DNA of 61,963 nucleotides, taken from the IMG/VR virus record IMGVR_UViG_3300050331_000115, positions 1 through 61,963 of that record; one strand, given 5' to 3'. Below are positions 6,767 through 61,784 of the stretch, in pieces. Within the stretch, counting starts at the first letter, position 1; the number at the start of each line of letters is the position of its first letter. The notes below the pieces were generated by a model. That model ran no database searches. It was not told the origin of the DNA and worked only from the letters and a program-made list of their open reading frames with translations. This stretch comes from a virus (taxonomy: Duplodnaviria > Caudoviricetes). A program made the translations under genes and the position numbers.

Positions 6767-6852
6767 AGAGGTCCTCTCCTATTAAGAGGAGATCATCGGA
6801 GCAGTGTTAATCCATATGCGTAAATATGCGTTTTGGACTTATGAACAAAAAT

Positions 6853-31770: not shown

Positions 31771-31827
31771 ATACTATCGACATATTGCCGGTTCGCTGTC
31801 AAGCGGAAATTCGCATAAAGACGCATA
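31771..31827 (-). promoter_or_regulatory. Putative late promoter with upstream CGCATA direct repeat
   Basis: TTGACA at 31797-31802, weak -10, CGCATA-N4-CGCATA at 31812-31827. Confidence 0.55.
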
Positions 31828-32584: not shown

Positions 32585-32804
32585 GGGTGTTCCCGAGTTC
32601 GAGTTAGTCTACGTCCGGCACCACCAGACACGAATATCCAAGACGTGTTGCCGGCCATACGTCAAGGACGAAATGCGAGAATATGCGCAGGTGGCCAAAT
32701 TGGTGGGAAAATCCCACTAATGGGGGCTGGCCGCCCATCCGGGGCTCCGGCTGTCCCAATTGTGGCAATTTATAGGCACCCAGTTTTACCCTTCTGCCCA
32801 CTCA

Positions 32805-32863
32805 CCTCCCCCCCTTCCCCCAACCCCCACCCCCTATAGGGGGTGTTGGGGGTGGTGGGGAGG
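32805..32863. repeat. Long C/G-tract inverted repeat
   Basis: Perfect 18-bp palindrome CACCCCCTATAGGGGGTG at 32828-32845 with complementary flanks. Confidence 0.8.
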
Positions 32864-33027
32864 ATGCCTCGGAGAGGTCGTTTCGACCCCTGTTTCCCAC
32901 CACCTTTGTGTTCGGGAAGTGTTCGGGGTGTGGCGAAATTATGGCAAACGAGGGGCGATGCGTTTCGACGAAAAACGAGAGAAAATCCAGCAAGTTAACG
33001 CTCAGTTATGCACATTTGCCCCAACAT

Positions 33028-33106
33028 CTGAATTGCAGCGCTGCACGCAGAGGGGGGCGCGCGGTGTGCGGTCCTGTAGGTCAGTGCTGTTGACCTACCC
33101 CCTACC
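33028..33106 (-). other. Putative cos/packaging site
   Basis: Minus strand GGGGGTAGGTCAA...GGACCGCACACCGCGCGCCCCCC...GCAATTC resembles 3'-cos contexts. Confidence 0.5.
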
Positions 33107-33651
33107 TACTATATGTAGTGCCTGTTATGTGATGGGCAGACTAGATGTAGTGTGCCAGGCGATGCATGCGAGCATGACGCCATTCTAACAAATCGCATGT
33201 TTGTAGAATTACATTCCAAGGGGCAATTTGTCCCGCCAGCCCCGCATGCGGGTGTGTGTGGGGAAATTGTGCATAAGTCTGAAATGCTCAAAACGAGCCA
33301 ATCGACGCAAAATGTTTGCTTTGGCAAATAGCCGGTCGCCAGTAGGGCAAACATGCCGGCCGGCATGGCGAACTGCGGCATGGGCGGCCTGGCCGGAGCC
33401 GGCCTGGCTCGATCGCATTTGGCCGGCATGGCGCTGACAAGGCGAGCGCATGCGACTGGGCGAGCCTAAGCGCATGCCGCTAGGCGCCTGCAACGGCCGT
33501 CCCCATGGCGCATGCCACCTAGCGGGCGGATGGCCGGCAATCGCCTAGCGGCCGCTTGTGGTGGCCATGGCGCGAGCCTAGCTGCTCGAGGCAATGCGCC
33601 ATAGGTGGCGCACTAGACGCAATGGCAGGCGCAAGGCGCCAGATATGGCGC

Positions 33652-33678
33652 AAAAGAAAACGGCGCCCGAAGGCGCCT
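33652..33678 (-). terminator. Intrinsic terminator at left end of the ArdA island
   Basis: GGCGCC-TTCG-GGCGCC plus GTTTTCTTTT. Confidence 0.85.
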
Positions 33679-33704
33679 AGTTGGGAGGTAACAGGGGAAG
33701 GTGG

Positions 33705-33875
33705 TTAGAGCTGAATTTCGCTGTAAGAAATTTGAACCACCATTGTGGTTGTGGGGTGAATGCTGGCAACCACAGATCTATCCGGGCTCACCCAATTGCC
33801 GTTTTTGATGCGGCGGAAGTCAGATTTGCGCAGGTGGTCAACGGCTTCAGTCTGTGAGTTAAAATGAATGATCAT
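33705..33875 (-). CDS. Small hypothetical protein, 56 aa
   Basis: SD GGGAG; own promoter. Confidence 0.65.
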   Translation of the reverse strand: MIIHFNSQTEAVDHLRKSDFRRIKNGNWVSPDRSVVASIHPTTTMVVQISYSEIQL

Positions 33876-33896
33876 TTCGTTTTTCTCCCGTTTCGA

Positions 33897-33932
33897 TGGC
33901 CAATATATAGGCCATCGCCCGAGTCGCGTCAA
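33897..33932 (-). promoter_or_regulatory. Sigma70 promoter with operator TGGCCAATATATAGGCCA
   Basis: TTGACG-N17-TATATA; operator covers the -10. Confidence 0.75.
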
Positions 33933-34013
33933 CAACAAAATGCGAAATAATGCGCGCGCCGAAACGGCCGCTTGTGGCGGCCGCTTGGCTTGTGGTGGAT
34001 GGATGACGCGCGC

Positions 34014-34157
34014 CTATTTCTGCCGGCGCCATGTCCGATAATCGTTGACGGACTCGAACGCGATAAACCCGCCGGAGACGGCCGCGATAACGGCCGCCCA
34101 TGGCGCGCGGCGCCTGGCAGTAGACCGCGATTTGCACTCAATGAATGTTTGCCTCAT
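34014..34157 (-). CDS. 47-aa protein MRQTFIECKSRSTARRRAPWAAVIAAVSGGFIAFESVNDYRTWRRQK (not in ORF track)
   Basis: SD GAGGAG preceded by (CCA)4. Confidence 0.7.
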   Translation of the reverse strand: MRQTFIECKSRSTARRRAPWAAVIAAVSGGFIAFESVNDYRTWRRQK

Positions 34158-34271
34158 GTCGGACTCCTCTTGTGTGGTGGTGGTGGCGATACTGCTACAG
34201 CACGCCTAGCGCATGCAAGACGGCCGATACGACGCACAAGGCGCAAAAGGCCGCGGTCAAGTGATAGGCGG

Positions 34272-34592
34272 TCACGGGAGGGCACGCGAAACGGCCGCGA
34301 GTCGGCCGCCCTCGAGCCAATCGCCGCGCTCGGAGATGAATTCGGAATAGAGCGACTCCCAGTCGTCGCCGGCCAGAAGGAATCCGTCCGAGTCGTCGTT
34401 CGGATCCCACAACACCCATTCGCCTGGAAATGCGCTAGCGCGCGCCTTCAATTCGTCGCCGGCATCGGCTTCAAAGTCGCCGCGCCTATCCAGCGCATAG
34501 CCGTTGTGCTCGAGCTTGCCTTTCGCCGCTCGCAGTCGTTCGCCTTGATGGCTGGCAAATTCTCCGGCGGCCGCCTCATTGATCGTTTTCAT
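34272..34592 (-). CDS. Small acidic hypothetical protein
   Basis: SD GAGGAG plus CCA tract; D/E-rich. Confidence 0.7.
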   Translation of the reverse strand: MKTINEAAAGEFASHQGERLRAAKGKLEHNGYALDRRGDFEADAGDELKARASAFPGEWVLWDPNDDSDGFLLAGDDWESLYSEFISERGDWLEGGRLAAVSRALP

Positions 34593-34683
34593 AATCGACT
34601 CCTCTTGCGTGGTGGTGGTGGTGTGATGGTGGTGACTGGCATAACGCCATAAAGCCGGCCGATTGCGCGGCCGGCCGAAAGCG

Positions 34684-35364
34684 TTAGGTGGTGCGGAAGA
34701 AATAGAGCTCGCCGAATTCGCCGTCGCGATAGGCGGACCAATCGCCGCTTATCTCCCAGTCTCGAGCAAGCGAGTCCCAGTCAATATGGCCTTCCAGCCA
34801 TGCAGGAACGGCCGACATGTCGAAACAATCGTCCGCCCGTTCCTGAACAAAATCTTTCCAGGTTTCGGCCGTGCCATCATATTGATCGGAAATGAAATCT
34901 TCCGGATCTTCGGCGCCGGCATCGTTCATTGCCTCAATGAGAACGGCCGCCGGAATTCCGGCATCATCTGCCGCTTCCACAATGGCGACGCGGCGCGCCA
35001 CCTCCTCGAGGCCGGCATATTCGCCAATGTCGCCGAGTCCTTCCGAGTCGTGAATTGCCCATTCTTCGGCGGAAGGGAAGGGTTTGCCTTGCAGCTTTTC
35101 CATATGATCGCAGGCCGGGCATTCCATTGACTCGGGGAAGCCCTCGCCAGCGCCGCGCGTATAGGTATGGCCGGCGCCGCATGCGTCGCAATGGTAGTTG
35201 GCGCGCGTCACGTTGGGCTCCGGCGACGCGGCGAGCATGGCGTTTATTTCCGCCTGCATTGCGTCGACGTCCGTGGTGGCGTCAATCCATAGGCCATGCA
35301 AGCGGCCGGCGTTGTAGCTGGCAAGACAAGCGGCATAGATGCGCGGGTTTGTGGTGGTGGTCAT
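34684..35364 (-). CDS. ardA: Antirestriction protein ArdA with CxxC...CxxC insertion
   Basis: RIYAACLASYNAGRLHGLWIDA, EWAIHDSEG, IDWDSLARD; very acidic. Confidence 0.92.
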   Translation of the reverse strand: MTTTTNPRIYAACLASYNAGRLHGLWIDATTDVDAMQAEINAMLAASPEPNVTRANYHCDACGAGHTYTRGAGEGFPESMECPACDHMEKLQGKPFPSAEEWAIHDSEGLGDIGEYAGLEEVARRVAIVEAADDAGIPAAVLIEAMNDAGAEDPEDFISDQYDGTAETWKDFVQERADDCFDMSAVPAWLEGHIDWDSLARDWEISGDWSAYRDGEFGELYFFRTT

Positions 35365-35416
35365 AGTGGACTCCTCTGGTGGTGGTGTTGCGCGCCGTGG
35401 TGCGGCGCCGTGATGG

Positions 35417-35788
35417 TTAGTGGGAAAGCGAAATGTAGAGCCGGCCGTTATGCGGAAATAGATTGCCGGCGCACGTGCCTTGCTCGGCGAGCTTTTCCGC
35501 CTCATCCCAGTCAATGGCGCCGACTCCATCGCCGGGCGCCAGAGACTGCAATTCGCGCAAATCGCCGGCCGCGTATTGAAGCGTAAGCGCTTCAATTTCG
35601 ATGGCTGACATAGCCTGCGCATGGTCGCGCGCCTTGTCCAATTGGTCGCGCCTCAAAAGGCGCCTTGCGCCTTCTTTGGCATTGTCCCAGGTGAACCGCG
35701 CGGCGCCATGGCCGAGCTCGGCGATAGAGCCGCTAATCATGGCCGGCTCGAGCGTGGTTATCAGGCGCGTTACGTCAACTTCCAACAT
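35417..35788 (-). CDS. Hypothetical protein
   Basis: SD AAGGAG; first gene after leftward promoter. Confidence 0.7.
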   Translation of the reverse strand: MLEVDVTRLITTLEPAMISGSIAELGHGAARFTWDNAKEGARRLLRRDQLDKARDHAQAMSAIEIEALTLQYAAGDLRELQSLAPGDGVGAIDWDEAEKLAEQGTCAGNLFPHNGRLYISLSH

Positions 35789-35817
35789 TTCCGACTCCTT
35801 GTGGTGGCGCGGTGCGA

Positions 35818-35918
35818 TGGCCTATCTATTGGCCATCACGGCTTCACGTCAAGCGCGAAATGCGCCTATATGTATCTATGGTGTTGACACAAGCGCGCGT
35901 TGGCCAATAGATAGGCCA
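35818..35918. promoter_or_regulatory. Divergent promoter pair, each with an 18-bp operator
   Basis: TTGACG (-) and TTGACA (+); operators at 35818-35835 and 35901-35918. Confidence 0.75.
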
Positions 35919-35947
35919 TTGAGAACGCGAATTGAGGAGTCGAGCAG

Positions 35948-36196
35948 ATGGACATTAGGGCAAAGATTGAAGCGCGCATCGCCGCCGAGCATGCCAAGCC
36001 CGACACCCACGTTGGAGTCGTTACGTTCACGGATGGCACGGATTGGCGCCAGCCGTGCAAGAGCGCTGCAGCGGCGGAAAATTTCGTTAGCAGCTATCGC
36101 CGCTTGATTGGCACGCATGAATTCATCAGCCGCAAGACTGGCCAAAAAATCCGCGTCGCTAGCGTCGCTGTGGTGGCGCTGGCAATCGGCGACTAA
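35948..36196 (+). CDS. Small hypothetical protein
   Basis: SD GAGGAG. Confidence 0.7.
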   Translation: MDIRAKIEARIAAEHAKPDTHVGVVTFTDGTDWRQPCKSAAAAENFVSSYRRLIGTHEFISRKTGQKIRVASVAVVALAIGD

Positions 36197-36227
36197 CCAC
36201 CACCACCACAAAAAAGGAACATCGCAG

Positions 36228-36575
36228 ATGGAACGCAAGACATGCACCGGCGAGAGATATACCGGCGAATGGCAATCGCTTTCGGCTCTGCCAAAGTGGC
36301 ACGGCAAGTTTGGCCACCTGAATGCCTATCGTCTTGACCACGAAGACCCGTGCACTGGGTTCGGCCGGCACGATCGTGTGGTTGCGTTCGTTCCAGACGC
36401 GGAGGGTCTTTATTGCCGCGTTGACCACGTCTGGAGTCTCGGAATGCCCACCGAACGCCAGATTTTGGCAGTCGCGAAGCATGACAACGGCACGCGCGGC
36501 AAGTGGCGCCTAGACCGAATTGAGCCGTGGGACAACGGCAAGTCTACCGACTGCCATTTTGTGCGCGTGACATGA
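36228..36575 (+). CDS. Hypothetical protein
   Basis: (CCA)4 plus AAGGA SD. Confidence 0.65.
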   Translation: MERKTCTGERYTGEWQSLSALPKWHGKFGHLNAYRLDHEDPCTGFGRHDRVVAFVPDAEGLYCRVDHVWSLGMPTERQILAVAKHDNGTRGKWRLDRIEPWDNGKSTDCHFVRVT

Positions 36576-36673
36576 AAACCGAGCGGCCGCAGGGCACGGC
36601 CGCTCCCTTGCATGCCCACCACCACCACCACAGCCGCGCAAGCGGCGCCACCACCACCACAAGGAGTCTTGAT

Positions 36674-36919
36674 ATGCAAACGGAATTGGACATGTCGCGC
36701 TTGCCGCTCGGGCTGCGGCACGACTCATATTTCGAGAGAACCGGAAAGCTCGGGCCGAAGATCGACGTCTATTTTGTGACGGACGAACGGCCGCTTTCGC
36801 TCACCTATAAGCATTCGACAAACTGGCACAAGACGTGCCGAGAGGCGATCGCCGCGGCCGCGCGGCACTATGGATTGCCGCGCCATACCTTGCGCGCATA
36901 TTTCTACCGGGGGCGCTGA
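36674..36919 (+). CDS. Small hypothetical protein
   Basis: CCA tracts plus AAGGAG SD. Confidence 0.65.
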   Translation: MQTELDMSRLPLGLRHDSYFERTGKLGPKIDVYFVTDERPLSLTYKHSTNWHKTCREAIAAAARHYGLPRHTLRAYFYRGR

Positions 36920-36921
36920 TC

Positions 36922-37125
36922 ATGGCGAAAGCAACGCACAGAATCCGCCGCTGCGGTGGCAACAAAGACGCGTGGTGCCTTATCGCTTTGCGCGATGATG
37001 GCAGCGAGATTGACAACTATGGGGGGTACACCACGTCCCTTAGCCTCGACTCGCTCTTGAAGCGTGCCGGCGGGTTACTGCCCGCGCCCGGTGACACAAT
37101 CGAGCTTGTCTATTATCCGGCCTAG
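36922..37125 (+). CDS. Small hypothetical protein
   Basis: Starts 2 nt after upstream stop. Confidence 0.6.
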   Translation: MAKATHRIRRCGGNKDAWCLIALRDDGSEIDNYGGYTTSLSLDSLLKRAGGLLPAPGDTIELVYYPA

Positions 37126-37207
37126 CCGCGGCGCCCTATCAGCGGCGCCCTATCAGGCGCCGTCAATAGAACGCCACCACCCACCACGCCACCACGGAGT
37201 CCAGCAA

Positions 37208-37537
37208 ATGAACGTCTACATGTACGCGGCCGCGCTCTATTGCGCCGATTGCGGCGAGTCCATCCGCCAAACGCTTGACCGTGAAGGCAAGCGGCCGGCC
37301 GATCCTGGCGACGAGTCCAGCTATGACTCGGACCAATATCCCAAAGGTCCGTTCGGCGATGGCGGCGGCGAGTCGGACTCGCCTTGCCACTGCGGCGCAT
37401 GCGGCCGCTTTCTCGAGAATCCGTTGACGCCTGATGGCGTCGACTATGTGCGCGACGCGATCGCAAGCGGCGATGGCGCGCCGGATGTTCTGGCCACCTG
37501 GCGCGCGTTCTATGGCGCCGAGATTGAGCACGCTTGA
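37208..37537 (+). CDS. Acidic protein with two CxxC motifs
   Basis: YCADCG...HCGACG; CCA tract plus GGAG SD. Confidence 0.7.
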   Translation: MNVYMYAAALYCADCGESIRQTLDREGKRPADPGDESSYDSDQYPKGPFGDGGGESDSPCHCGACGRFLENPLTPDGVDYVRDAIASGDGAPDVLATWRAFYGAEIEHA

Positions 37538-37718
37538 ACCAATATCGCGGCGCCGCGGGCCGGCGCCGTTCCTATTGGCTCAACCTGGCAAGAGGAGGGA
37601 CGTTGACTAGCACAAGCGGCCGCGCATGCAAGGCGGTCGGATCTACCGGGCGCCACGAGTCCAAAGCGTGGCGCCCGTCCCACGCCACCACAAGCCTAAC
37701 CACCACAAGGAGTCCACT

Positions 37719-37952
37719 ATGCCCACAATCGCCGAATTCCTGGCCGGCCATCCGCTCGCCTATCGTTCATTCGATGGCGTCGCCGTGGTCGCCACCTATC
37801 ACAAGGCCGGCCGCGACGCGATCGGCCACCTGGCCATCTGTGACGCGCAAGGCCGGCGCCTGGCGTCGCCAGTAATGGGCGAACATGGCGCGGCGCAATT
37901 CCATGGCAGCATTGCCGCGGATCCGGCCGCGCGGCCGCTCGAGCTCGCCTAG
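37719..37952 (+). CDS. Small hypothetical protein
   Basis: CCACCACAAGGAG SD. Confidence 0.65.
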   Translation: MPTIAEFLAGHPLAYRSFDGVAVVATYHKAGRDAIGHLAICDAQGRRLASPVMGEHGAAQFHGSIAADPAARPLELA

Positions 37953-38060
37953 CATCTAGGCGCCACCACGGCCGCCGGCCTAACCGCCTGGCGGCCGTTT
38001 GCTATGGCGCGGCCGCTCGAGCGCTCGAGCTCGGCGGATGGCGGCCGGCCGCTATGTCGC

Positions 38061-38233
38061 AATTTTTCTGTGTCGCAGAATCTCAAAACAGCTTTGACAC
38101 TTAAAATTTCTCTGTGTCGAAAAATCTCAAAACAGCTTCGACACTTGAATTTTTCGCTTCGACTGTGTATCAAAACCCCTTCGACACTTGAAATTTTCTG
38201 TGTCGCAAAATCTCAAAAGAGCTTCGACACTTG
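38061..38233. repeat. Four tandem ~43-bp AT-rich repeats
   Basis: Unit about AATTTTCTGTGTCGCAAAATCTCAAAACAGCTTCGACACTTG; third copy diverged. Confidence 0.9.
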
Positions 38234-38248
38234 AGTTTTACACGTCCT

Positions 38249-38728
38249 CTACACTGCCTCGGGTTCTGCATTTTGCTTATTATCATTCGCCGCCAACCAC
38301 CCGCACACCAGCCCCACCGCGGCAGCAGCAGCCTCCTCCTCTGTGGAGGCGCGGACCACCTCGACGGTGTGACCGATCGCGCGCAGGGCGTCGTGCCGCT
38401 CGACCTGTGCCGGCGACAAGCGCCCTTTGGCAGTTTTGTTCTCGATGAACGCGCACCGCCCGCCAGGCAGGAAGATGGTGAGATCCGGGTGCCCCGCGGT
38501 TAGTCCGGTTGCCTTCGCCTTTACCTGCTCCTGCGGCCCGCGGCGCCCTGCCTCCATGCCACCAACCAATAGGAATTGTCTGCCGTAGGTGGGCAGGGCG
38601 CGCAGTGACCGAATTTGGGCGGCTTGTAAGCGCCACTCGAGCACCGGCGCCTCGACAAGCGTTGTTTTTACGACGCGGCTGCCGTTTGGCAGGGTCGTCG
38701 TGGTGCATTTGAGGCGGGTGCGGGTCAA
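38249..38728 (-). CDS. VRR-NUC domain nuclease
   Basis: GLTAGHPDL, FIENKT, GRLSPAQ; ends AANDNKQNAEPEAV. Confidence 0.88.
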   Translation of the reverse strand: MTRTRLKCTTTTLPNGSRVVKTTLVEAPVLEWRLQAAQIRSLRALPTYGRQFLLVGGMEAGRRGPQEQVKAKATGLTAGHPDLTIFLPGGRCAFIENKTAKGRLSPAQVERHDALRAIGHTVEVVRASTEEEAAAAAVGLVCGWLAANDNKQNAEPEAV

Positions 38729-39000
38729 GGTTCGAGCGCCTTGTCGATCATGGCTTGCCATGCCTCCGTCATGGCCCACGATGTTACGCCGTCGCCGTCC
38801 ACCTCGTCTGTGGTCGCCATCCCTCGACGCACCACCTCCGCAGCCGGCTCCCGCATGGCCTCGATGGCAGCGCGGGCGAGGTCGCGGCACACGTCCACCC
38901 CCAAAGCCTGCGTCCGCATATGCGACCCCGGCTCTCTCCCAGCCGTTGGGGAACGGTCGCGGATCGCCCTCGCCACTCGCTCGATCATCTCGCTTGCCAT
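38725..39000 (-). CDS. Hypothetical protein
   Basis: MIERVARAI...ARAAIEAMREP...WQAMIDKAL. Confidence 0.7.
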   Translation of the reverse strand: MASEMIERVARAIRDRSPTAGREPGSHMRTQALGVDVCRDLARAAIEAMREPAAEVVRRGMATTDEVDGDGVTSWAMTEAWQAMIDKALEP

Positions 39001-39002
39001 CG

Positions 39003-39404
39003 TCACCACCCGTAGTCCTTCCCGTCGTTCACGTCGCGGAAGTTGACGCTTTCCGAGTAGTAGCCATTACTCGATCCGTACCAGCGGATGTCGACGTAAC
39101 CCTTGCCGGTGGCGAGCTTGTAGAACGTCCATGTCGAGGATTCGTCGGTGTACTCATGGTCACCATACTTTTCGGTCTTCGGACTCTCCGTGTCGCTCGA
39201 CTCCTCGGCCACCAGTACCGGCGAGCCGATAAGGTCAGCGAGGTCGCCGTTGATGTCCTCGATCGATACGCTCTCGCAGCAATCCTGCGAATGGTACATC
39301 AAGTATTCGCCGCCGTCGGCGGTCTTGAACCTGATCTCGTCCTTCACGTCGTTCACTTCGACGGCGGTCAACGTCTTGCCGATCAGCGTCTCGAACTTTG
39401 CCAT
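39003..39404 (-). CDS. Conserved phage hypothetical protein
   Basis: HSQDCCESV...WTFYKL...[11 protein letters not shown]. Confidence 0.75.
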
Positions 39405-39506
39405 TTGTGGTGCTCCGTGGTGGTGTGGCGGGCTACCCACCCATCCCACCAGCGTTAACACCTGTTCGTCAAGTATGCGCATACATGCGCCCCACACCAT
39501 GCGGCG

Positions 39507-39716
39507 CTAATGCTGTGCCCGCTCCATGAATTCTAAAAGCCGACACGCAAGTTCGATGTACTTCGGCACCTCGCGTGCGCCCGTCAACCTGGGGCGCAAG
39601 CTCTCGCGGTTCCAGCCCAGCAACTCCGCCGCCTCGCGCTCGGAGAGCCGGTCCTTTCCGCGCATCCGGCCCATGCGTTTCATCCAGGCGTTCAGGTCTT
39701 CTTTGGTCATGGTCAT
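39507..39716 (-). CDS. Small HTH DNA-binding protein (Aca-like repressor candidate)
   Basis: LSEREAAELLGWNRESL...VPKYIELAC; operator in its own promoter. Confidence 0.75.
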   Translation of the reverse strand: MTMTKEDLNAWMKRMGRMRGKDRLSEREAAELLGWNRESLRPRLTGAREVPKYIELACRLLEFMERAQH

Positions 39717-39739
39717 GGTGGTGATTCCGTGTGGTGGTG

Positions 39740-39824
39740 TGGCCAATATATAGGCCAGAGAGGCGCGGGTGGCAATCGCATAAATAGGTGTTGACTCCAA
39801 CCTGCAGGCGCATATAGTCGCATT
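39740..39824. promoter_or_regulatory. Divergent promoters; leftward one carries the 18-bp operator
   Basis: TTGCCA-N17-TATATA (-), operator 39740-39757; TTGACT...TATAGT (+). Confidence 0.7.
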
Positions 39825-39857
39825 TATCCACCACCCACCACCACGAAGGAGTCCACC

Positions 39858-47888: not shown

Positions 47889-47927
47889 CGTATGCTCCTC
47901 GCATAAACACGCATAATTTTGGGCAAG

Positions 47928-49655: not shown

Positions 49656-49763
49656 TTAGACTCGTGTGGTGGCTGTGGTGGTCGGCTGGTTAGGCCGGTG
49701 GTGTGGTGTCGCATAAAGACGCATATGGTGAAAGCAGAATGCGCGACTTATGAACAATTTTCG

Positions 49764-56014: not shown

Positions 56015-56105
56015 CAAGACGCATTTATTCGCATATGCCAACCATAAAGGCGCATCTGCATTGACTTATGAACAAAAAAATGCGTATTGGGCAATTGGGC
56101 GTCAA
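56015..56105. promoter_or_regulatory. Immunity control region with divergent promoters
   Basis: AT-rich gap, TTGAC on both strands, CGCAT repeat, GACTTATGAACAA element. Confidence 0.65.
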
Positions 56106-56121
56106 CGAGGACCAACGAAAA

Positions 56122-56796
56122 ATGAGAAAAATCTCATCCAAGATCAAAGACTTGAGGTCCATCCTTGGTATGGACCAAACCGCATTCGGGAAGCTGATAG
56201 GGGACGTCGACCAGTCCACAGTCTCCCGGTGGGAGCGGAATGTGCAGAAACCAGGCGCCGGGCACATCATCCGGATGGCGGAATTAGCCGGGGTATCGCC
56301 GCAGCAGTTTCTTGGCATTGCGGCCCCCGGCGGGTCTGCTGCGGATCGCCGGGTTCGTGTGATCGGATCGCTGCAGGCCGGCGATTGGCGCGAGGCGTTG
56401 GAGTGGCCTACGGAAGAGCAGTACGAGGTGCCCGCGCCGCTGCCGCAGGATTTGCAGGACCGCGAACTGATCGGGTTTGAGATCCACGGCCCGAGCATGA
56501 ATCAGGTTTACCCAGACGGCTCTGTCGTCTACGTCGAGCCGCTGTTCAGCCTTGGGCGCGAGCCCAAGAGCGGCGAGCGCGTAGCCGTACAACGAGTGTC
56601 GGCCGACGGGACGTACGAAGCCACCTGCAAGGAATACGTTGTGGGGCCTGATGGCCATGCGTGGCTGTGGCCGAGGTCGAATGACCCTCAACATCAAACA
56701 CCGATTCCGTTTGTCGACGGTCGGCGCAGGACCCGCGAGGTGTTGATCATAGGTGTGGTCAGGGCCGCGCTTATCGTGGAAAATCCAAACACATAA
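56122..56796 (+). CDS. CI-like repressor (XRE HTH plus S24 peptidase)
   Basis: QSTVSRWE, QAG cleavage site, GPSM, TCK. Confidence 0.92.
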   Translation: MRKISSKIKDLRSILGMDQTAFGKLIGDVDQSTVSRWERNVQKPGAGHIIRMAELAGVSPQQFLGIAAPGGSAADRRVRVIGSLQAGDWREALEWPTEEQYEVPAPLPQDLQDRELIGFEIHGPSMNQVYPDGSVVYVEPLFSLGREPKSGERVAVQRVSADGTYEATCKEYVVGPDGHAWLWPRSNDPQHQTPIPFVDGRRRTREVLIIGVVRAALIVENPNT

Positions 56797-60478: not shown

Positions 60479-60727
60479 ATGAACCATGCAAATGATAACT
60501 ACCCACCCGTCCTCACGCGCTCTCAGGCGGCCGCCATGTGCCAACTGACTCCAGCCGGCTTTGATGTGTGGGTCAGGAAGCGTATCGTGCCGGCGGCGAT
60601 AGAGGGCACCCGCCGGTGGAGCCGCGACGCAATACTGCGAGCCCTGTCCGGCGCCGACGCCATCGGCGTAGATGCGGCGCTGTCGCCGTTCGAGCAGTGG
60701 GAAGCAGAGAATGCACGCACGGCTTAA
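60479..60727 (+). CDS. xis: Excisionase-like winged HTH
   Basis: LTRSQAAAMC...TRRWSRDAI; overlaps integrase start; begins MNHANDNY (in-frame GTG at 60386 is an alternative start). Confidence 0.75.
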   Translation: MNHANDNYPPVLTRSQAAAMCQLTPAGFDVWVRKRIVPAAIEGTRRWSRDAILRALSGADAIGVDAALSPFEQWEAENARTA

Positions 60728-61784
60728 AGGGATCCACACCGTCAAGCGCCAGGTCGCCGACGGCACGGTCAAGGTCCACTACTATCACCGTGCGAGCGGA
60801 ACAGCGCTGCAAGGCAAGCCTGGGTCTGCCGCGTTCGTCGCGTCACTCGCTGCCGCAGAGGCGGCGATGAAGTCGCGCGACGACGGCACACTGTCCGGGC
60901 TCATCCGCGCATTTGAAAAGACAACGAAGTGGCGCAAGCTCGCCGAGAGCACCAAGATCGAGTACCGCAGGATATTCAAATTCTGGGACGGCAAGTTCGG
61001 CACCGTGCCGCTTCGCGCGCTAGCCGACAAGACATTCCGCAAGCGCGTGCTCGAGTGGCACGACGACTTCTCTGCAGACAAGCCACGCGAGGCCGACAAC
61101 CGCGTGACGATCCTAGCACGTGTGTTGTCGTGGGCGGCGAGCGACGGCGACCTCGAGACCAACGTGCTGGACTCGTTCGACCGCGCCTACGCTGGCGACA
61201 GGTCCGACATGATCTGGTTTCCGGAACACGTCGAGGCGTTCATGTCGGCGGCCGAGCCGGAGATGCAGTTGGCGATGGTGCTTGCCCTCCACACCGGGCA
61301 GCGCCAAGCCGACATCCGCAAACTGGCGTGGACGCAGTATGACGGCGCCACCATCGGGCTACGGCAGGGCAAGACTGGGCGCGACGTGCGAGTGCCATGC
61401 ACCGCTGCGCTCAAGGCAACGTTGGATGCGGCGCCCCGCCGCGGCCTGCTGATCCTTCTGACCAAGACTGGCAAGGCGTTCCAGAAGCGGTACTTCGCCG
61501 AGCGGTGGGACGCTATCTACACCAAAGCAAAATTGCCAGGCGTAGCCAACGACGAGGCTGGTATCGCCGCCGATCCATCGAAGCGGCTTCACTTCCACGA
61601 CATCCGCGGCACCACGGTCACCATGCTGTTCGAGGCCGGCTGCACGGTCGCCGAGGTGGCATCGATCACCGGGCACAGCCTACGGCGAGCTCAGGAGATT
61701 CTTGACAAGTATCTGTCACGCACGAGCGGTATGGCCAAGAGCGCGATCGCGAAGTTTGAAGCCGGCATGGCGGGGAGGGAATGA
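60711..61784 (+). CDS. int: Tyrosine integrase
   Basis: TGQRQAD, KTG, FHDIR, TGHS, KY catalytic residues. Confidence 0.95.
   Translation: MHARLKGIHTVKRQVADGTVKVHYYHRASGTALQGKPGSAAFVASLAAAEAAMKSRDDGTLSGLIRAFEKTTKWRKLAESTKIEYRRIFKFWDGKFGTVPLRALADKTFRKRVLEWHDDFSADKPREADNRVTILARVLSWAASDGDLETNVLDSFDRAYAGDRSDMIWFPEHVEAFMSAAEPEMQLAMVLALHTGQRQADIRKLAWTQYDGATIGLRQGKTGRDVRVPCTAALKATLDAAPRRGLLILLTKTGKAFQKRYFAERWDAIYTKAKLPGVANDEAGIAADPSKRLHFHDIRGTTVTMLFEAGCTVAEVASITGHSLRRAQEILDKYLSRTSGMAKSAIAKFEAGMAGRE

Follow-up and report, generated by a model that had tools for sequence, protein, structure and literature searches.

A four-copy palindrome as the putative operator of a small helix-turn-helix protein in the ArdA region of an uncultivated temperate phage

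Most Aca families are predicted to control neighbouring operons with putative anti-defence genes, and the source that states this reports it as shown for Aca14; there, DUF1870 is given as the helix-turn-helix (HTH) domain of Aca2 (PMC13551039, 2026). On the IncN plasmid pKM101, ArdK is described as the repressor of ardA, of its own gene and of repA, acting through repeated CUP elements (PMC6289460). ArdK, which IncW plasmids also encode, is assigned to the KorA family, and its recognition sites are direct repeats positioned at the -35 box or close to it (PMC9723621). The ArdA protein of Tn916 is reported as ORF18, with the structure PDB 2w82 (PMC2731889). Here, we analyse a stretch of 61,963 bp from an uncultivated phage, called the window throughout, which is the entire IMG/VR provirus record IMGVR_UViG_3300050331_000115 (CheckV completeness 98%; source, a sediment metagenome). 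The window comprises an entire temperate siphophage, whose immunity switch, of the classical kind, is at 56 kb, and a 6.8-kb block is situated between its packaging and replication modules. This block encodes ArdA, ten small orphan open reading frames (ORFs) and a 69-amino-acid (aa) HTH protein. Judging from the DNA itself and from structure prediction, we consider it likely, at a probability of roughly 0.6, that an 18-bp palindrome repeated at four promoters of the block is the operator of this HTH protein, which would act as a local repressor. The type of circuit is already in print (Aca; ArdK with CUP), and it appears here with a previously unannotated HTH family and with ArdA as marker cargo.

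The palindrome has the form TGGCC-N8-GGCCA with an A/T core, written TGGCCAATA(T/G)ATAGGCCA, and occurs in exactly four copies in the 61,963 bp, where 0.01 would be expected per window and where none of 100 shuffles reached four. An earlier note, made from the letters of this DNA, had placed it at four promoters, and all four copies proved exact at those positions:

33897-33914, no strand assigned, operator O1, exact; the -10 hexamer of P1, CTATAT, lies inside it at 33905-33910
35818-35835, no strand assigned, operator O2, exact, in the K=G form (G at the T/G position) on the minus strand; over the -10 of P2
35901-35918, no strand assigned, operator O3, exact; over the -10 of P3
39740-39757, no strand assigned, operator O4, exact; over the -10 of P4, the HTH gene's own promoter

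No further copy was found across the whole record when up to two mismatches were allowed, nor under a relaxed rule of at most one arm mismatch and at least 6 of 8 A/T positions in the core. The 5-bp arms are perfect at all four sites, their centres 13 bp apart, and the core varies from site to site (ATATAT or ATAGAT). The centres of O2 and O3 are separated by 83 bp, or about eight helical turns by arithmetic from the coordinates, a spacing that would be compatible with cooperative binding. Elsewhere the exact pattern occurred as singletons only, at 33 genome, 49 metagenome and 2 viral loci; none of the genome and metagenome loci gave a tblastn match to any of 20 window proteins, and the 49 metagenome loci gave no match to the hidden Markov model of the HTH family either. 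Neither GGCC nor TGGCCA is avoided in the phage, and a role of the arms as restriction or methylation sites was provisionally set aside.

Promoters were scored against the Sinorhizobium meliloti sigma-70 consensus, given as CTTGAC-N17-CTATAT (PMC2873474). The -35 boxes are:

33928-33933, minus strand, -35 box of P1 (GTTGAC)
35848-35853, minus strand, -35 box of P2 (CTTGAC)
35883-35888, plus strand, -35 box of P3 (GTTGAC)
39771-39776, minus strand, -35 box of P4 (ATTGCC)

P1 (GTTGAC-17-CTATAT) agrees with the consensus at 11 of the 12 positions, P2 (CTTGAC-18-ATAGAT) and P4 (ATTGCC-17-CTATAT) at 10 each and P3 (GTTGAC-18-ATAGAT) at 9, and the palindrome contains the -10 hexamer at all four promoters. 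When the four regions are aligned in the orientation of their genes, they agree at two elements only, the -35 box (TTGACG, TTGACG, TTGACA and TTGCCA) and the palindrome. The register is fixed: the palindrome begins 11-12 nt after the -35 box at all four promoters, and the start codon follows it at 21, 29, 29 and 23 nt for P1, P2, P3 and P4, respectively. A palindrome that covers the -10 and the predicted start site of all four putative promoters has the geometry of a repressor site. It could be argued instead that the four copies are duplicated promoter cassettes, in which the symmetric arms are a by-product and no repressor is involved, and sharing does extend beyond the 18 bp, with arms lengthened to GATGGCC/GGCCATC in P1 and P2. 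However, the regions are otherwise dissimilar, almost all of their 25 invariant columns falling in the -35 box and the palindrome, and the persistence of perfect 5-bp arms at four sites while the core varies points to selection on the arms. Duplicated cassettes are thus a very improbable explanation, and we continue with the palindrome as a putative operator.

The arrangement of 11 small genes on three promoters that the earlier note described was borne out. The P1 unit, on the minus strand, holds a single 56-aa ORF followed by a terminator-like hairpin. P2 and P3 form a back-to-back pair. From P2, on the minus strand, run the 123-aa ORF, ArdA, a 106-aa acidic ORF and a 47-aa basic ORF; from P3, on the plus strand, run six ORFs of 82, 115, 81, 67, 109 and 77 aa. 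The P4 unit, again on the minus strand, is made up of the 69-aa HTH gene, DUF7448, a 94-aa ORF and a VRR-NUC nuclease, and P4 probably also transcribes these three genes downstream of the HTH gene.

The protein to which we assign the palindrome is encoded as follows:

39507-39716, minus strand, 69-aa XRE-type HTH protein, proposed dimeric repressor of O1-O4 (by model, fold neighbours, profile and dimer prediction)

The assignment is made because, of the regulator genes, only this one carries the palindrome in its promoter, because a scan of the CI/cro region for the palindrome gave no copy, and because the 81-aa protein of the P3 operon, which gave the one other hint of an HTH within the four operons, has a poor model that is not HTH-like. 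The latter had been considered as an alternative regulator and was set aside: its model, for which five relatives were aligned besides its own copy, has three strands, one helix and a fourth short strand at a predicted local distance difference test score (pLDDT) of 54.7. The phage has its own CI/S24 repressor and integrase elsewhere, and the 69-aa protein is therefore a second, local regulator. Its model, from an 11-row alignment, has four helices, a pLDDT of 93.8 and a predicted template-modelling score (pTM) of 0.80. Among known structures the nearest folds are NE0471 (2auw), with a template-modelling (TM) score of 0.74, and Aca10 (0.70 by query, 0.84 by target); further neighbours are Aca2 of phage ZF40 (0.68) and the controller protein C.AhdI (0.48). 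Searched against 177,635 PDB sequences, the family profile found NE0471 at an expectation value (E) of 3e-6 and three Aca1 sequences at 6e-4 to 9e-4. The protein had been called Aca-like in the earlier note, and the likeness holds for its XRE-type fold, its neighbours Aca2 and Aca10 and its profile match to Aca1. By sequence it is not a member of the Aca1, Aca2 or Aca10 families, given those Aca1 values and Foldseek E values of at least 0.16 for Aca2 and Aca10.

Dimerisation is predicted as well. A two-copy complex reached a score of 0.67, compared with at most 0.01 in three controls, and thereby passed a mark that is reached by 20 of 30 proteins solved as same-chain pairs and by 1 of 23 solved as single chains, counts that hold only roughly here because a custom alignment was used for the HTH prediction. 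The pass may reflect likeness to solved XRE-HTH dimers. The runs share at least 95% of their contacts, with a partner pLDDT of at least 92, and the predicted interface (residues 33-35 and 51-63) includes the family-invariant residues L33, G34, P51, L56, A57 and C58. A symmetric dimer as modelled fits the dyad of the operator.

For the HTH protein, an exhaustive search of 1.84 billion representatives gave 11 proteins at E <= 0.001, with 2 at E <= 1e-10, and a word-index search gave two more at 78-79% identity, besides the window's own. In two orthologues, P0002 and P0003 (78% identical), the called ORFs start upstream of the conserved MTMT start. Compared by eye, the extension residues GLYIGH (P0003) and MAYILP (P0002) fit the translation of the operator core in two different frames; in the window, the upstream frame encodes LAYILA over the operator. 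From this back-translation of protein we infer that the palindrome stands directly before the start codon in those contigs as well. Only 0-1 nt would separate the two there, so that the mRNA may be leaderless, unlike that of the HTH gene of the window, which has a 23-nt leader with a (CCA)n tract.

The circuit that we propose would work as follows. The HTH protein would bind as a symmetric dimer, with one recognition helix for each TGGCC arm. As the A/T core of the palindrome would serve as the -10 hexamer, with the start site in the downstream arm, a bound dimer would exclude RNA polymerase. Binding at O4 would make the HTH gene, with its weaker promoter P4, autoregulated, and binding at O1-O3 would control P1 and the P2/P3 pair, which are proposed to drive ArdA and the ten small ORFs. 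On entry of the DNA into a naive cell, with no repressor present, the promoters would fire and ArdA could block type I restriction; as the HTH protein accumulated, all four promoters would be shut off, and in the lysogen the protein would hold them at a low, self-limited level. Binding, repression and timing are what we infer from the arrangement of the locus.

The locus resembles Aca systems in several respects. A small HTH protein is encoded with accessory or counter-defence genes, an inverted repeat is present in its own promoter and in those of neighbouring operons, a dimer is predicted, and a burst followed by shut-off would be expected by analogy; the fold neighbours Aca2 and Aca10 and the profile match to Aca1 were given above. 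The locus differs from Aca systems in that it holds no known acr gene, the sole cargo of known function being ArdA, an anti-restriction protein. In addition, the HTH gene is the first of its unit, before DUF7448 and VRR-NUC, and not the last after an acr gene, and four promoters would be under its proposed control. The HTH family is a separate one, with no Pfam family at cut-off and without DUF1870 among its matches at E <= 0.1, and its abundant relatives are chromosomal genes of the order that contains Rhizobium.

The earlier note had also offered ArdK-type repressors as a model. The regulatory plan is alike, since one small repressor would combine autoregulation with control of ardA and other establishment genes through an element repeated in several promoters. 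The family is not: ArdK is of the KorA type and recognises direct repeats at or near the -35, whereas the window has an XRE-type HTH protein and, as the putative site, an inverted repeat that covers the -10, and the setting is a phage instead of the leading region of a plasmid. No KorA-family Pfam match was found for the 69-aa protein at E <= 0.1, and its single-domain model is XRE-like. A third comparison is with the controllers of restriction-modification systems (C.AhdI, C.Kpn2I and C.BclI), which are XRE-type HTH proteins of the same size, are among the fold matches and reach a profile E of 0.22. C proteins are dimers that bind palindromic boxes at their own promoter. The locus differs from theirs in that no restriction endonuclease gene adjoins the HTH gene, which is followed by DUF7448, the 94-aa ORF and VRR-NUC, and the C5 methyltransferase of the phage lies 3.5 kb away in another operon.

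Several results weigh against the palindrome being the operator of this repressor. As for the protein, Pfam gave no family at cut-off (best HTH_31, 16.1 bits against 27), its PHROG matches are weak, including one to a 'transcriptional repressor' family at E 0.008, and Foldseek gave no match of the model in PDB at E <= 0.001, the XRE fold being generic. DNA of close relatives was not found in viral, genome or metagenome contigs or by tblastn against phages and plasmids, so that co-conservation of operator and HTH gene is only indirect. When 401 genomes were sampled from the order to which a Rhizobium genome belongs and were searched in six frames, 101 gave a match to the family profile. Eight of 20 fetched chromosomal loci were widened for neighbourhood reading, and none of the eight adjoins island genes. 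Family matches of about 100 aa (L133-L136) are set among chromosomal genes, and three of the four (L133, L135 and L136) adjoin an ORF of more than 1,100 aa, which we take, by eye from its N-terminal sequence, to be carB. Given this chromosomal setting, the HTH family is not specific to mobile elements. The chromosomal paralogues of about 100 aa (L112, L114-L122, L125-L127 and L133-L136) often have two or three GCAC-N5-GTGC palindromes upstream, which would fit autoregulation in the family, and such a paralogue, for which a look for a name gave none, looks like an autoregulated regulator in a housekeeping context. As the profile matches in the 401 genomes were mainly to this longer paralogue, they supply no context for the phage protein.

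On the side of the promoters, matches at 9 or more of the 12 positions number 53 in the window against a shuffle mean of 47.7, which is no enrichment, and an E. coli-type promoter scan detected none of P1-P4. The evidence therefore lies in the way in which -35 box, palindrome and start codon keep their register, and not in promoter strength. The sigma70-like promoters of the earlier note keep their -10 hexamers under all four palindromes and lose the attribute 'strong', which would have to be deduced from the register, most convincingly at P1. Moreover, a plus-strand CTTCAC-18-CTATAT (11 of 12) at 35842-35871, between O2 and O3, has no palindrome over its -10, and its position upstream of O3 means that its transcripts would have to cross O3.

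A second motif, the direct repeat CGCATW-N4-CGCATW, also bears on the regulation of the block, and occurs in eight exact copies in the window:

6815-6830, 31812-31827, 32672-32687, 33939-33954, 39809-39824, 47900-47915, 49710-49725 and 56020-56035, the eight copies of CGCATW-N4-CGCATW
33939-33954, minus strand, CGCATT-N4-CGCATT, just upstream of the P1 -35
39474-39489, one-mismatch copy CGCATG-N4-CGCATA with TTGACG, ahead of DUF7448

A CGCATW box stands directly 5' of a TTGACG -35 at P1 and in the late promoter region (32672-32687), and the one-mismatch copy is placed likewise before DUF7448; with its TTGACG, the box at 39474-39489 may give DUF7448 a promoter of its own. A further box covers the -10 of a divergent plus-strand promoter at 39791-39818, and another is in the CI/cro intergenic region. 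The direct repeats adjoin some -35 boxes, and nothing ties the motif to the 69-aa HTH protein. With boxes at P1, DUF7448 and the divergent promoter, at least one other regulator therefore acts on the block, which is a further point on the negative side. This second regulator, which is perhaps CI, probably links the block to the immunity switch.

This brings in the possibility that the palindrome itself is bound by another factor, be it a host regulator, the CI or Cro of the prophage or another island protein, and that the HTH gene is merely one of the regulated genes. The CGCATW motif implies other regulators at these promoters, the site is assigned to the HTH protein on sequence and model only, and the 81-aa protein has a borderline HTH_psq match. 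Nevertheless, without a palindrome at CI/cro or elsewhere in the record, CI and Cro would have no sites at their own switch; the 81-aa model is poor and not that of an HTH; the unrelated singletons that are all the exact pattern yields elsewhere argue against a conserved host-factor site; and the orthologue extensions, back-translated by eye, put the site directly before the HTH gene. We judge another factor to be improbable and hold to the 69-aa HTH protein as the likely repressor at O1-O4.

The marker of the regulated cargo is ArdA:

34684-35364, minus strand, ArdA anti-restriction protein of 226 aa (PF07275, phrog_2059, 2w82)

By sequence it is a genuine member of its family. Pfam PF07275 is matched at 94.7 bits against a cut-off of 27 over model positions 1-152 of 155, phrog_2059 ('anti-restriction protein') at E 2.4e-22, and Tn916 ArdA (2w82) at E 1.6e-6 in two aligned pieces, residues 8-40 and 99-218. 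With 45 Asp+Glu against 13 Lys+Arg and an isoelectric point (pI) of 4.1, a composition that would suit the acidic DNA-mimic surface of the family, it shares the strong acidity of Tn916 ArdA, and inhibition of type I enzymes is its putative function here. The two proteins differ in an insert of about 58 residues (41-98, encoded at 35071-35244) that Tn916 ArdA is without; in the phage protein it carries two CxxC pairs and a sub-threshold Pfam Zn_ribbon_8 match. A SoxR match of ArdA was rejected as far below cut-off.

The ten orphans that would be controlled together with ArdA are:

33705-33875, minus strand, 56-aa ORF behind P1; start 21 nt after O1; no Pfam or PHROG match
35417-35788, minus strand, 123-aa orphan, first of the P2 operon; phrog_24784, unknown function, E 1e-13; pI 5.0
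34272-34592, minus strand, 106-aa acidic orphan; pI 4.5; weak phrog_33439 match, E 0.002; no PDB sequence match
34014-34157, minus strand, 47-aa basic ORF with a hydrophobic stretch, last of the P2 operon; (CCA)n and Shine-Dalgarno before the ATG; pI 11.5
35948-36196, plus strand, 82-aa orphan, first of the P3 operon; start 29 nt after O3; no family match
36228-36575, plus strand, 115-aa orphan with four Cys; no family match
36674-36919, plus strand, 81-aa orphan; C-terminal HTH_psq match at 20.3 bits against a cut-off of 20.4, not a convincing HTH
36922-37125, plus strand, 67-aa orphan; no family match
37208-37537, plus strand, 109-aa acidic Zn-ribbon-like orphan of a widespread phage-only family
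37719-37952, plus strand, 77-aa orphan, last of the P3 operon; no family match

All ten were compared with Pfam and PHROGs, eight with NCBIfam, four with PADLOC and four with PDB sequences. None gave an anti-defence or defence family match in the family libraries so covered, none reached the threshold of a Pfam family or matched an NCBIfam or PADLOC model where these were searched, and the four compared with PDB sequences, which include many Acr structures, had no match there; among the island proteins ArdA alone matched. The earlier note had put the orphans forward as candidate anti-CRISPR or anti-restriction proteins, for which these family and PDB sequence searches provide no anti-defence match. 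That they are counter-defence proteins is plausible and unproven.

The 109-aa Zn-ribbon-like protein belongs to a widespread family. It has 71 relatives besides its own copy, all unnamed or 'hypothetical', with C12, C15, C62 and a GGGE motif as family invariants. Its Atlas clusters, of 60, 69 and 277 members, are labelled 100%, 89% and 100% Viruses and have no common Pfam family. Relatives were located at 67 viral loci, where ArdA was found within 6 kb in 4 of the 67, a weak case for guilt by association, and a member of the HTH family in none, which also speaks against the proposed repressor. Nine of ten representatives of the heterogeneous neighbours have no Pfam family, and one is AAA_24. 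Homologues of the 123-aa protein lie about 2.5-3 kb from the record start in two phages. In Xylella phage Salvo, where a cos overhang is annotated at that end, the homologue is gp05, one of several small genes of unknown function in its operon and 2.8 kb away from the overhang; in Xanthomonas phage XacN1 the distance to the record start is 2.5 kb. An Atlas search with the 123-aa protein, whose model is poor, gave scores below 0.9 only. In three records of T7-like Pseudomonas phages, the ArdA homologue is placed 1.8 kb from the record start.

The same local repressor and four operators could instead govern an ordinary early or middle block of accessory and DNA-metabolism genes, in which ArdA is a passenger and the HTH protein a Cro-like timing switch. 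The HTH gene's own unit carries no anti-defence genes and holds instead DUF7448 and VRR-NUC:

39003-39404, minus strand, DUF7448 protein of 133 aa (PF24240, E 2e-29; phrog_2650, E 6e-51)
38725-39009, minus strand, 94-aa orphan between DUF7448 and VRR-NUC
38249-38713, minus strand, VRR-NUC nuclease, last of the P4 unit (PF08774, 28.8 bits against a cut-off of 23.8; phrog_824)

To this can be added that 0 of the 10 orphans have an anti-defence or defence match in the libraries scanned, that the neighbours of the Zn-protein relatives are heterogeneous, and that the block has the replication module on one side and the packaging module on the other, a position at which miscellaneous genes are found in many phages. 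Set against these points, a bona fide ArdA sits in the middle of the P2 operon, and several orphans combine small size with acidity, a combination seen in many DNA mimics and inhibitors. The ArdA homologues of the three T7-like Pseudomonas phages (1.8 kb) and the Salvo homologue of the 123-aa protein (2.8 kb) lie near the record start or cos, and T7 ocr is located at the left end. We regard an ordinary accessory block as unlikely. The more specific proposal that the four-operator regulon marks new counter-defence proteins, so that one or more of the orphans would inhibit bacterial defence as new proteins of that kind, is itself a tentative and rather doubtful one; the 109-aa Zn-ribbon family and the 123-aa phrog_24784 protein are the best candidates for it.

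Should the HTH protein indeed repress at all four sites, the locus would add to the recently described pattern, in which several counter-defence operons answer to a single small regulator, an instance that is built around ArdA and has four promoters and a new HTH family. By sharing operators with ArdA, the unknown genes of this uncultivated phage form a short list of putatively co-regulated candidates that can be tested. One of them, the 109-aa Zn protein, belongs to a family that occurs in dozens of viral contigs and is unannotated in the databases searched. The gain is a new instance and a list of candidates, not a new concept. If an orphan turned out to be a new inhibitor, operators shared with ArdA would offer a usable rule for finding such genes in uncultivated phages.

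Some minor matches of the small ORFs were examined and discarded. A NEDD4_Bsd2 match of the 47-aa ORF was far below cut-off, and TAL-effector matches of the 115-aa protein were probably spurious, one 24-residue stretch (residues 75-98, 36450-36521), which is similar to a single TAL-effector repeat, being summed over repeats with none passing alone. The 56-aa ORF has a GC content at third codon positions (GC3) of 0.56, against 0.66-0.85 for the other island ORFs, and may be foreign or non-coding. The fold of the P1 transcript (z = -2.28) is not decisive between a small RNA and an mRNA, and an Rfam scan of the window gave no family. The leftward unit ends at a hairpin:

33662-33677, minus strand, intrinsic-terminator-like hairpin of six G-C pairs followed by a T-run

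The remainder of the phage, as read from a Pfam scan, is laid out as follows:

7.8-8.7 kb, minus strand, lysozyme
12.5 to 29.7 kb, minus strand, tail fibre, tape measure, HK97-type capsid, portal and large terminase
40.9-43.1 kb, minus strand, primase-polymerase/AAA_25 protein
43.3-44.8 kb, minus strand, C5 methyltransferase
up to 55.6 kb, minus strand, helicase, sliding clamp, DUF669 and AAA_24 proteins
56122-56796, plus strand, CI-like repressor with HTH_3 and peptidase S24
60711-61784, plus strand, tyrosine integrase

Searched by blastn against phages and plasmids, the island gave short DUF7448 matches only, the best to a Sinorhizobium phage; in the matching region of Sinorhizobium phage AP-16-3 all genes are labelled 'hypothetical'. 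No relatives of the primase-helicase were found in viral contigs. Among three runs examined, low-depth fragments of the same phage were present in a second run, besides a source-like contig, and the RNA run yielded nothing, a result that carries no information on expression. Phages with lambda-like packaging inject first the end that lies opposite the terminase genes. By analogy, and speculatively, the block, which lies just upstream of the late/packaging genes, might be among the first DNA to enter the cell.

Between the late/packaging genes and the ArdA block, about 1.1 kb (32585-33704) is without an ORF of coding-like GC3 and has a high density of short repeats, direct and inverted, that are themselves GC-rich; one pair of arms is at 33595-33611 and 33636-33652. 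The stretch could be the cos or pac region or some other structured part of the genome.

Most island genes have a CCACCAC(CAC)n tract, on the sense strand, directly 5' of their Shine-Dalgarno sequence:

34158-34190, 34593-34625, 35365-35385, 35789-35810 and 36197-36227, CCACCAC(CAC)n tracts
36640-36673, 37174-37207, 37685-37718, 39828-39857 and elsewhere, further CCACCAC(CAC)n tracts

By pattern search, the arrangement of tract and Shine-Dalgarno occurs at 15 distinct gene starts in the window, in which CCACCAC itself has 29 occurrences on the plus strand and 55 on the minus strand. The tracts may be translation enhancers. Exactly where the P3 operon and the P4 unit converge, at 38061-38246, four head-to-tail repeats of about 43-44 bp lie in A/T-rich DNA, and an inverted pair, GTGTCG...CGACAC, is present in three of the four. 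The repeats may serve as iterons, as a partition site or as an array to which a protein binds.

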